From a virus (taxonomy: Duplodnaviria > Heunggongvirae > Uroviricota > Caudoviricetes): a stretch of 64,000 nt of DNA. The position numbers were made by a program. The first letter of the stretch is position 1, and the number at the start of each line of letters is the position of its first letter. The stretch lies in IMG/VR virus record IMGVR_UViG_2939521961_000006, one strand, 5' to 3'. Positions 3,001 to 6,000 of this stretch are shown one piece after another.

Positions 3001-6000
3001 TCGAGCACAGGCTCTGGCGAAGATCGCAGAAATTAAAGCTAAGTTCGGACTGAAAGGAGCAAGTGTATGACGGGCAAAGAGGCAATTATTCATTACCTCG
3101 GGACGCATAAGAACTTCTGTGCACAGGACGTTTCCGCGGTAACAGGCGCAACCGTAACCAGCATAAATCAGGCTGCGGCTAAAATGGCGCGGGCAGGAAT
3201 CCTGGTCATTGATGGTAAGGTCTGGCGAACGGTGTATTACCGGTTTGCTACCAGGGAAGAACGGGAAGGAAAGATGAGCACGAACCTGATTTTTAAGGAG
3301 TGTCGCCAGAGTGCAGCGATGAAACGGGTATTGGCGGTATATGGAGTTAAAAGATGACCATCTACATCACTGAGCTAATAACAGGCCTGCTGGTAATCGC
3401 AGGCCTTTTTATTTGGGGGAGAGGGAAGTGAACGATAGCTACCGACAGTTTGAAAACTGGTGGTCAAAAGACAAAAGCCAGTTCACGGGAGACGATGAAT
3501 TAAAAGAGTTTGCCTGGGTGATATGGCAGGCATCGCGCTCTGCTATTGAACTGGATATCGACTGGCCCGAATCGAATGACGACTTTTGGAAAGATGGTGA
3601 AGAAGGTGCTTATGCGATGGGTTATGAGGATGGGCGTGACAAAACGGTAATTGCAGTAATGAAAGCCATCAGGGCCGCAGGAATCAAAGAAAAGAATTTC
3701 GATTAAGCAAATATCACTTCAATAAATCGCTTTTAAGGCATCACAATCGCTCTGTAGCGAGGTAAACGCGTGCAAGGCATGCCAATAAGCAGCGAGAATG
3801 AAAAATGCGTCAGAATGCGTTTGAGGAGGTTTTAAGAAATGAGTACGATAGCTGAGCTTGTCAGGGCTAATTTTCGTGAAGAGTTGGTGCGTTGGTATCG
3901 GTATCGTTCATCGTCCAGTTTGCCGCTTGATGAGTTGTATGAGCATTCACCTGCCGCACGACGCTATCCGCGTGACCGTGTTCTTCGACGGTTGTTCAAA
4001 CTCAACAATGAGTTTCAGCGCAACAGAATTATCCGGAGTCTGGATTTAAAGTGAAGGAGTGAGCATGAGCGACCTATCATTAACCCAGCCAAAGCTAAAA
4101 GAATGTCCGTTTTGCGGCGGTAATGCTCGTCTGTGGGTTGAGGCCGGAATAAATATTGATGTGTGGGGCTATGCAGAATGTGACCTCTGTGAAGCCAGGG
4201 GGGCATGGGCACCATCAGTTGCTGCGGCGGCTGAAAAATGGAACCGGAGAGCAGGAGATGAAGCAAACCTTTCTGCTTCGCAACGAAGCAATCAGAAATA
4301 ACGCCATAGACGCCATTCTCTCACTACCCATCGACGACAAGTCACCCCACGAAGTCCACGTTAAAGAACCCAAGCGCAGCAAAGCGCAGAATGACCGTAT
4401 GTGGCCGATGCTGAACGATGTTTCGCGTCAGGTGCTATGGCATGGTCAACGGCTGGCGCCGGAAGACTGGAAAGACCTGTTCACTGCCCTGTGGCTTAAG
4501 ACCAAAAAACTGGAGCAACGAAGTGTGCCTGGTATCGACGGTGGCGTTGTCATGCTTGGCGTGCGTACCAGCAAAATGCGGAAGGCCAGCATGACTGAGC
4601 TTATCGAAATCATGTTCTGGTTCGGCTCAGAGCGCAACGTGCGGTGGAGTGATGACTCCCGGCGAGAGTATGAATGGTCACAACGAAAAGGTAGGGCTGC
4701 ATGACTATCAAATCAAATACGCCAGCACACGACAAGGACTGCTGGCAAACGCCGCTTTGGCTTTTTGATGCACTGGATATTGAGTTTGGATTCTGGCTGG
4801 ATTCGGCAGCGAGCGACAAAAATGCTCTGTGCGCTCACTGGCTAACTGAGGCCGACGACGCGCTCAATTCTGAGTGGGTAAGCCACGGTGCAATCTGGAA
4901 TAACCCACCGTACAGCAATATCAGGCCGTGGGTGGAAAAAGCCGCTGAGCAGTGCATACAACAGCGACAGACGGTAGTTATGCTTGTGCCAGAGGATATG
5001 TCAGTCGGATGGTTCAGCAAGGCTCTGGAGAGTGTTGACGAAGTTCGCATCATCACTGATGGACGGATTAATTTTATCGAACCATCGACAGGGCTGGAGA
5101 AGAAGGGAAACAGCAAAGGCTCCATGCTGCTGATTTGGCGACCGTTCATCAGTCCTCGACGAATGTTTACTACTGTATCCAAAGCGGCATTGATGGCGAT
5201 CGGGCAGGGCGTCAGGAGGGCGGCATGAGGCGACAGCGACGAAGTATCACCGACATCATCTGCGAAAACTGCAAATACCTTCCAACGAAACGCTCCAGAA
5301 ATAAACGCAAGCCAATCCCAAAAGAATCTGACGTAAAAACCTTCAATTACACGGCTCACCTGTGGGATATCCGGTGGCTAAGACATCGTGCGAGGAAAAC
5401 AAGGTGATTGACGCGATGATTTATTCGGGGCTATATTCCTCACGCGCCAGCAAAATCTGGCGTCGGGATTGGCGTCCTGGATAGAGACCGCGACAGATAC
5501 ACGCCGCGAGCGTGTTTTTTATTGTCGTATGCACGCGCACATCTGAATTATGGTGGGCTGTGTGGGGGCGGAGAGATCCGCGCCGGTCGGTTTCCCGGTT
5601 ACGCCAACCCTGCACAGTTCACCACCAGACGATTGGCGTCGTCGGTGGTGAGTTATTAAGAAACCACCAGAGGGCGTCATTATGACAACTCAAATTTCTG
5701 TTGAAACTCTCTCCCCGATCACCCATAACCAGATTCCTGTTATTACCACCGAACTTTTGGCGCAGCTTTACGGCACTGAGCCGGTGCGTATTCGCCAGAA
5801 TCATCATGAGAACAAAGTACGCTTCGTTGAAGGGAAACACTTTTTCAAAGTTGTTGGTAATGACCTTAAAGAATTGCGGGTAGCTTTAAACTACTCACAA
5901 AATTTGCGGGTTACTTTAAGTAACTCACAAAATTTGCAACCATCTTTAAGAGGGTTACAAATTTCCCCGAAAGCCCGCTCCCTCATACTCTGGACAGAAC

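Follow-up and report, generated by a model that had tools for sequence, protein, structure and literature searches.

Positions 3413-5228 of a virus record from IMG/VR (IMGVR_UViG_2939521961_000006, Caudoviricetes), within the stretch of 64,000 nucleotides that was analysed here and is called the window below, are the mosaic 'nin' accessory region of a Shiga toxin 1a (Stx1a)-converting prophage and as such are already well known. An earlier note had seen in them a possible anti-restriction cluster made up of an acidic tryptophan-rich protein, a small open reading frame (ORF), a Lar-like protein and a Dam-like methyltransferase. In our judgement it is quite probable that the region is the promoter-distal nin part of the rightward delayed-early operon of a lambdoid prophage, in which two variable slots flank ninB, and that a link to restriction holds for the Lar-like protein and Dam only, with the acidic protein not shown to be a DNA mimic.

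Over bases 3300-5450 the window matches many Stx1a-converting phages, and the chromosome of Escherichia coli O26:H11 11368, with 100% identity, and nothing of substance differs between them in this stretch. The window itself begins inside the repressor gene of the lambdoid prophage. On the identical O26:H11 11368 DNA (locus tags ECO26_RS08365-08390), RefSeq gives the order ren, a 92-aa hypothetical protein, DUF7301, a Lar-family restriction alleviation protein, NinB, a phage N-6-adenine methyltransferase and NinE, and the ORF list and family scans made here agree with this gene order from RefSeq and the Prokaryotic Genome Annotation Pipeline (PGAP). For the Lar-like protein and Dam, annotation relevant to restriction is already in the public records. 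The four genes that the earlier note placed between ren and ninE, and both flanks, were correctly identified, but NinB, encoded at 4258-4704 between the Lar-like gene and Dam, had been overlooked. Phage VT2-Sakai carries a closely similar series in orf29-orf33, comprising an acidic protein 98.9% identical to the one studied here, a Lar-like protein, NinB, an identical Dam and NinE; it differs in having its own, other replication genes upstream, and its DUF7301 gene is unannotated.

All of these genes lie on the plus strand. Directly after ren, terminator scanning and folding place an intrinsic terminator on the same strand at 3383-3412, with an 8-bp stem containing six G-C pairs (3383-3406) followed by a run of T; phage Nil3 has exactly this sequence, labelled there as tR2. 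The first variable slot extends from this tR2-type terminator to ninB and here holds the genes for the acidic protein (3428-3706), a DUF7301 protein (3839-4054) and the Lar-like protein (4065-4301). The second slot extends from ninB to ninE and here holds Dam (4701-5228). The backbone is shared with the nin regions of P22 and lambda, namely the replication genes, the tR2 terminator, ninB, and ninE through to Q, with ATGA-type packing (PMC8022706). In P22, however, ninA and the terminator are followed directly by ninB with nothing between them, so the three small genes here occupy a slot that P22 leaves without genes. P22 also has ninD between ninB and ninE, where the present phage has Dam. The gene that separates the two slots encodes a 148-aa NinB/Orf recombination mediator with an ATG start, called in PGAP as well, and belongs to its family by a wide margin (PF05772, 164.1 bits against a cut-off of 23.8, 1.8e-48; phrog_72, 1.1e-61). 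Stop and start codons overlap as ATGA at the ninB-dam and dam-ninE junctions, and such tight packing with overlaps is typical of nin regions (PMC8022706).

The idea of a cluster acting together fares poorly on this arrangement, in which NinB splits the supposed members, and on the separate assortment of the genes in relatives. Among 65 IMG/VR loci with a near-identical acidic gene and at least 2 kb of sequence downstream, the full module is present in 46. In eight others PF26207, the family of the acidic protein, is followed by NinB and then NinE without DUF7301, Lar or Dam; DUF7301 is present with Lar and Dam both missing in six, and Lar alone is missing from five. The retrieval of related loci, which used a shallow alignment, returned near-identical loci only, and the simplest explanation for the frequent joint presence of the genes in Stx phages is that these phages are close relatives. 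Salmonella prophages have DUF7301 between a DnaB-type helicase gene and ninB, without Lar, Dam or PF26207, and E. coli prophages have it before an unrelated 140-aa gene and Dam. The commonest PF26207 relative that was looked up, a protein of 88 aa that 1247 blocks of the collection contain, has ninB as its immediate downstream neighbour, and neither Lar nor Dam, in all six places shown, and in two of the six DUF7301 stands upstream of it, the reverse of the order here. PF26207 members in a Hafnia phage, in Escherichia phage C1 and in Pseudomonas Pakpunavirus sit among arrays of unrelated small hypothetical genes. Because the neighbours of PF26207 across the family are not related to restriction-modification (R-M), guilt by association with anti-restriction genes fails. 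We conclude that the nin accessory genes here assort independently and do not belong together as one co-functional cluster.

The same neighbourhoods bear on a proposal that the PF26207 protein works with NinB in phage recombination or replication. In its favour, the PF26207 gene of lambdoid phages is almost always found after the replication genes and just before ninB. This, however, is no more than the location of the variable slot. Moreover, P22 has ninB without any PF26207 gene, and the Pakpunavirus and phage C1 members have no annotated NinB in the stretches examined. We therefore hold a partnership with NinB to be very doubtful.

The acidic protein was said to have 92 aa, to be rich in Trp and to be of unknown family. 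The first two points are borne out on the plus strand, where the product has a net charge of -9, an isoelectric point (pI) of 4.40 and six Trp (WP_001000127.1). The gene is real, although the start at 3413 corresponds to an upstream in-frame TTG and PGAP begins the gene at the GTG at 3428. As to the third point, the protein does have a family, PF26207 (Phage_phiTE_015) or phrog_343, albeit one without known function. It matches phrog_343 at 4.6e-29, precomputed PF26207 hits cover nearly all of its homologues, and a 92-aa protein in the same slot elsewhere carries the PF26207 label; a Pfam copy lacking the PF26207 model, NCBIfam and PADLOC gave no match. A profile search returned 423 representatives of the family at 50% identity, and a second search at least 4459 clusters at 90% identity. 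None of the 120 clusters listed has a functional name, and all 102 members sampled match phrog_343, 'unknown function'. The family is common in the genomes of E. coli, Salmonella and Cronobacter, mostly in prophage regions, and occurs also in virulent Pseudomonas phages; a distant member used as a tblastn query picked up relatives from phages of Pseudomonas, Salmonella, Escherichia, Aeromonas, Proteus, Yersinia, Hafnia and Klebsiella. A search of the literature on PF26207 and phiTE_015 found nothing relevant.

Conservation within PF26207 is sharply partitioned. The consensus runs M..SREQFE.W, a first variable segment, W.AWQASRAAIEIELP, a second variable segment and AIRAAGIKVK, with a mean pairwise identity of 56% in the core and 20-22% in the two variable segments. 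One type of second segment is found paired with unrelated types of first segment, a count that is biased by the use of representatives at 50% identity. The near-invariant residues are R5, F8, W33, A35, S36, R37, P47, G85 and K89, none of which is acidic. In the protein of this phage, the whole net charge of -9 resides in residues 38-72 and the conserved core has a net charge of 0. A conserved scaffold bearing two hypervariable segments has the look of a host-interaction protein. Some members carry extra in-frame N-terminal modules (e.g. P0125, P0130, P0138, P0152 and P0160), either zinc-ribbon-like (CxxCxGxG...CxC) or of the type 'WAIKHKSGR.LF...NNRR', with both present in P0138; the modules had no match in the Pfam copy.

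This distribution of charge is central to the proposal that the acidic protein is a DNA-mimic anti-restriction protein, co-functional with DUF7301, Lar and Dam. Like T7 Ocr and ArdA it is small and acidic, its gene lies less than 1.3 kb from the Lar-family gene and Dam, and PF26207, most of whose members are net negative, occurs widely in both temperate and virulent phages, a distribution often seen with anti-defence genes. Yet the family core is neutral, with R5, R37 and K89 among its near-invariant residues, and the charge of the protein is confined to a hypervariable segment. Its charge density of about -0.10 per residue is lower than that of Ocr and ArdA. An AlphaFold2 model (predicted local distance difference test (pLDDT) 67, predicted template modelling score (pTM) 0.41) has helices at residues 3-15, 23-36 and 66-83, and its worst-modelled part, residues 55-66 with pLDDT below 50, falls in the centre of the charged segment; the DNA mimics known to us are rigid. 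Structure prediction and remote homology search had been put forward as a check on the proposal, and they revealed no similarity to solved proteins, DNA mimics such as Ocr and ArdA included. Sequence and profile searches of the PDB gave only chance matches (E >= 0.9), and Foldseek with the low-confidence model found nothing at E <= 0.001 in the PDB and BFVD, a negative that is not strong because the model is weak. The motifs WQASR, IRAAGIK, YPRDRVLRR, QFEAW and CPFCGG were absent from the supplementary files of a 2025 accessory-gene counter-defence screen. Together with the intervening NinB and the independent assortment described above, these results make the DNA-mimic cluster very unlikely in our view. 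Positive evidence for mimicry is nil, and an anti-defence role of some kind is compatible with the breadth and variability of the family.

The position of the acidic gene in the operon points the same way. It starts 16 nt past the tR2-type terminator, far down the pR operon and past the replication genes, and is not at a leading, first-expressed end. A consensus scan found no convincing promoter-like site between the terminator and ninE. Given genes behind a terminator and no convincing promoter between, we infer that expression occurs by N-dependent read-through, and the nin genes would be made only after N-dependent antitermination, in lytic growth. Since it lies behind the tR2-type terminator, the acidic gene would be expressed late relative to DNA entry, whereas a DNA mimic is expected to be expressed immediately on entry; judged by position and the promoter scan, it thus appears to differ from Ocr and ArdA in this respect too. 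The 132 nt that follow the acidic gene (3707-3838) were considered as the site of a structured RNA or a terminator, but this was dropped, as the fold z-score of the gap is -0.14 and Rfam gave no hit. A hydrophobic ORF of 25 codons at 3354-3431 (MTIYITELITGLLVIAGLFIWGRGK) spans the tR2 hairpin, and its stop overlaps the GTG start of the acidic gene. The counterpart of this ORF is named NinA in Nil3 and P22 (the acidic protein is "ORF29" in Nil3), and it is probably merely the terminator read as codons.

For Dam and the Lar-like protein, the anti-restriction reading of the earlier note is supported at the level of homology, a support that does not extend to the acidic protein or to a co-functional cluster. 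Dam, a phage N6-adenine DNA methyltransferase of 175 aa, scores 265.9 bits on the TIGR01712 equivalog model against a cut-off of 97.05, matches PF05869 at 6.4e-65 and has the NPPY catalytic motif at residues 67-70. It is indeed an orphan, as had been noted, since its neighbours are NinB and NinE and no restriction endonuclease is adjacent; in PADLOC it matched orphan and type II methyltransferase models only, the orphan model being the best (3.6e-19). It is 100% identical to orf32 of VT2-Sakai, which we take from the literature to be M.EcoVT2Dam; no other Dam-family gene was seen in the 6.3 kb of VT2-Sakai that were examined. GATC methylation is reported for M.EcoVT2Dam of VT2-Sa (PMC6602927, which cites Radlinska and Bujnicki 2001), and through the identity to orf32 the present Dam would be expected to methylate GATC as well. 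In the comparison with M.EcoVT2Dam, PF05869 and TIGR01712, the identical orf32 sequence, the NPPY motif and the orphan status are shared and no differences were detected. The rRNA methyltransferase of phage PA8 was ruled out as the identity of this gene, since it belongs to the MT-A70 enzymes, has a DPPW motif and is encoded elsewhere in its own phage genome. GATC is under-represented in the whole window despite the presence of a GATC methylase, with 162 sites against 247-270 expected.

An E. coli host already has Dam, and the GATC protection given by a phage Dam is partly redundant with it. This leaves room for a role of the phage enzyme in regulation (lysogeny stability, induction frequency, or the replication or packaging of fully methylated DNA) and not in restriction evasion, which we regard as possible, though on balance rather unlikely. 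In its favour, a Dam gene of the same length in Phi24B (528 bp) was detected as expressed in lysogen cultures, and host Dam is reported to be needed for stable 933W lysogeny (PMC3342100). Another Stx-phage 'DNA adenine methyltransferase' methylates rRNA and controls induction, but it is an MT-A70 enzyme and a different gene (PMC10810198). On the other hand, the virion DNA of lambda and P22 is reported to be under-methylated by host Dam (PMC8022706), so a phage Dam would add real protection, and DefenseFinder counts methyltransferases of enterohaemorrhagic E. coli (EHEC) phages as anti-R-M (PMC12502783). The two roles are, moreover, not mutually exclusive.

The Lar-like gene encodes a zinc-ribbon protein of 78 aa that, on its family scores, is a true Lar-family member, as the earlier note had proposed. 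It exceeds the cut-offs of both PF14354 (41.2 bits against 28.6) and TIGR03655 (62.3 against 39.6), matches phrog_599, and is 36% identical over 58 residues to RalR/Lar of the K-12 Rac prophage, with two CxxC pairs (CPFC and CDLC) that align with RalR. Rac Lar, the only member for which this activity is known, reportedly alleviates type I (EcoKI) restriction and enhances modification, a finding ascribed to King and Murray in 1995, and by this homology a link of the present protein to restriction evasion is supported. Five EcoKI sites are present in the window. The Lar-like protein shares with Rac Lar the four-Cys zinc ribbon and differs from it in setting, as Rac Lar sits beside recET and the Lar-like gene lies in the pR nin region, and in a tail of 13 residues (EANLSASQRSNQK) that is imposed by the overlap of the last 44 nt of the gene with ninB. 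A near-identical tail, ...ASQRSNQK, ends unrelated genes before ninB, namely the Lar-like gene here, PF26207 genes elsewhere and orf98 of phage Emek (seen at 4258-4301 of the window, in the homologues P0018, P0020 and P0024, and in locus L003 at 3767-4063). As the tail is the 5' end of ninB read in another frame and is common to unrelated genes, it marks a recombination or mosaic junction and is not part of the Lar domain.

The founding function of the Lar family is itself ambiguous, because Rac Lar and RalR are one and the same protein, for which DNase toxin activity in a pair with the small RNA RalA has been demonstrated (PMC4041452). The Lar-like protein, with its four-Cys zinc ribbon and its identity to RalR, might accordingly be read as the toxin in a type I toxin-antitoxin pair, acting as a non-specific DNase, and not as a restriction alleviator. 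This we consider improbable. With 27.6 bits, the protein stays far below the cut-off of 113 set for the RalR equivalog model NF007260. When the window was searched by blastn with K-12 ralA, nothing but chance matches of 10-16 nt turned up, and an Rfam scan of 3000-5600 listed no RalA. Furthermore, the gene lies in a tightly packed lytic operon and not beside an antisense RNA gene.

The small ORF, described as 71 aa, was confirmed at 3839-4054 by a strong Shine-Dalgarno sequence and a match to DUF7301 (Pfam PF23975, 3.8e-26, 91.5 bits against a cut-off of 27, which places it in the family; phrog_1785). The protein is basic (pI 10.8), has an invariant YPRDRVLRR motif and was modelled by AlphaFold2 as a helical hairpin (pLDDT 73) for which Foldseek found no fold matches. 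The family is narrow and enterobacterial; NCBIfam and PADLOC gave nothing beyond the Pfam DUF7301 assignment, and a search of the literature on DUF7301 found nothing relevant. A role as partner or antitoxin of the Lar-like protein was ruled out, since there are Salmonella and E. coli prophages that have DUF7301 and no Lar, and since DUF7301 may precede or follow PF26207. Two chimeras, P0114 of the DUF7301 family and P0143 of the PF26207 family, share a Cro/YdaS-like helix-turn-helix (HTH) N-terminus (MYKKDVIDHFGTQRAVA) fused to the C-terminal half of DUF7301 or of PF26207, respectively. These chimeras suggest that in other phages the slot is taken by an HTH gene, which undergoes recombination there.

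The ratio of nonsynonymous to synonymous substitution rates (dN/dS) was about 0.1-0.2 for the acidic gene (most diverged pairs, with only 8-9 substitutions per pair), 0.29 for the DUF7301 gene (against a 62%-identical Salmonella homologue) and 0.04 for Dam. These low values indicate real genes and not chance ORFs.

Several points weigh against the reading of the region as independent slot genes that include a non-mimic acidic protein expressed in lytic growth. PF26207 members are mostly mildly acidic (81% net negative, median -4, range -15 to +4, with the protein of this phage at the acidic end), and the second variable segment of the family has a median charge of -4, so a role for negative charge is possible. 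The AlphaFold2 model of the acidic protein is weak and its alignment shallow (30 sequences). Expression by antitermination only is argued from a consensus scan, and the Phi24B Dam gene discussed above was detected in lysogens. Lastly, the roles of the PF26207, DUF7301 and Lar-like proteins in this phage are drawn from sequence and models.

The left boundary gene, ren (3067-3357, plus strand), is 'protein ren' in PGAP and matches phrog_142, Ren-like exclusion protein (2.1e-41); the right boundary gene, ninE (5225-5407, plus strand), matches PF05322 at 2.7e-43. Just after ninE, Rfam matches isrK at 5444-5520 (75.5 bits) and c4-a1b1 at 5431-5483 (50.5 bits), and the start of the C4 antisense RNA is matched at 5546-5600, where the scanned range ends. 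Positions 5431-5600 are a P1/P7-type antisense-RNA control module before an antirepressor gene, which agrees with the presence of a promoter-like site (5408-5437) and a terminator (5499-5515). The antirepressor gene (ant, 5682-7683) is interrupted by an IS3-family insertion sequence on the minus strand, with ORFs matching HTH_Tnp_1 (7015-7317) and rve (6161-6979). This separates an N-terminal ORF6N domain (5682-6164) from a P22_AR_C domain (7333-7683), in contrast to O26:H11 11368, in which the gene is intact.

Taken as the nin part of a delayed-early operon, the region would work as follows. With all nin genes behind an intrinsic terminator, N-dependent antitermination would bring about their expression in lytic growth. 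Dam would then give full GATC methylation on rapidly replicating phage DNA, and the Lar-like protein, like Rac Lar and lambda Ral, may push type I R-M enzymes toward modification. Both mechanisms would guard progeny DNA and not the genome as it enters the cell, in keeping with how late the genes come in the operon. The acidic protein would be a neutral scaffold, formed by an N-terminal helix pair and a C-terminal helix, with two cassette-like hypervariable inserts, the second of which is strongly acidic and aromatic-rich here. Our best guess is that it may serve as an accessory protein of the lytic cycle whose constant scaffold presents a variable loop for binding a variable target of the host or a competitor.

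The stretch itself is ordinary, its DNA being identical to published Stx phages. The wider interest lies in PF26207/phrog_343, which is found in phages of gamma-proteobacteria, both temperate and virulent, is among the larger uncharacterised families of small phage proteins and offers a modest lead. As a long shot, it might be a new anti-defence family in which a helical scaffold displays cassette-like hypervariable decoy loops, and the acidic, aromatic-rich loop of the member described here would mimic nucleic acid or an acidic partner and so block a DNA-targeting host defence.

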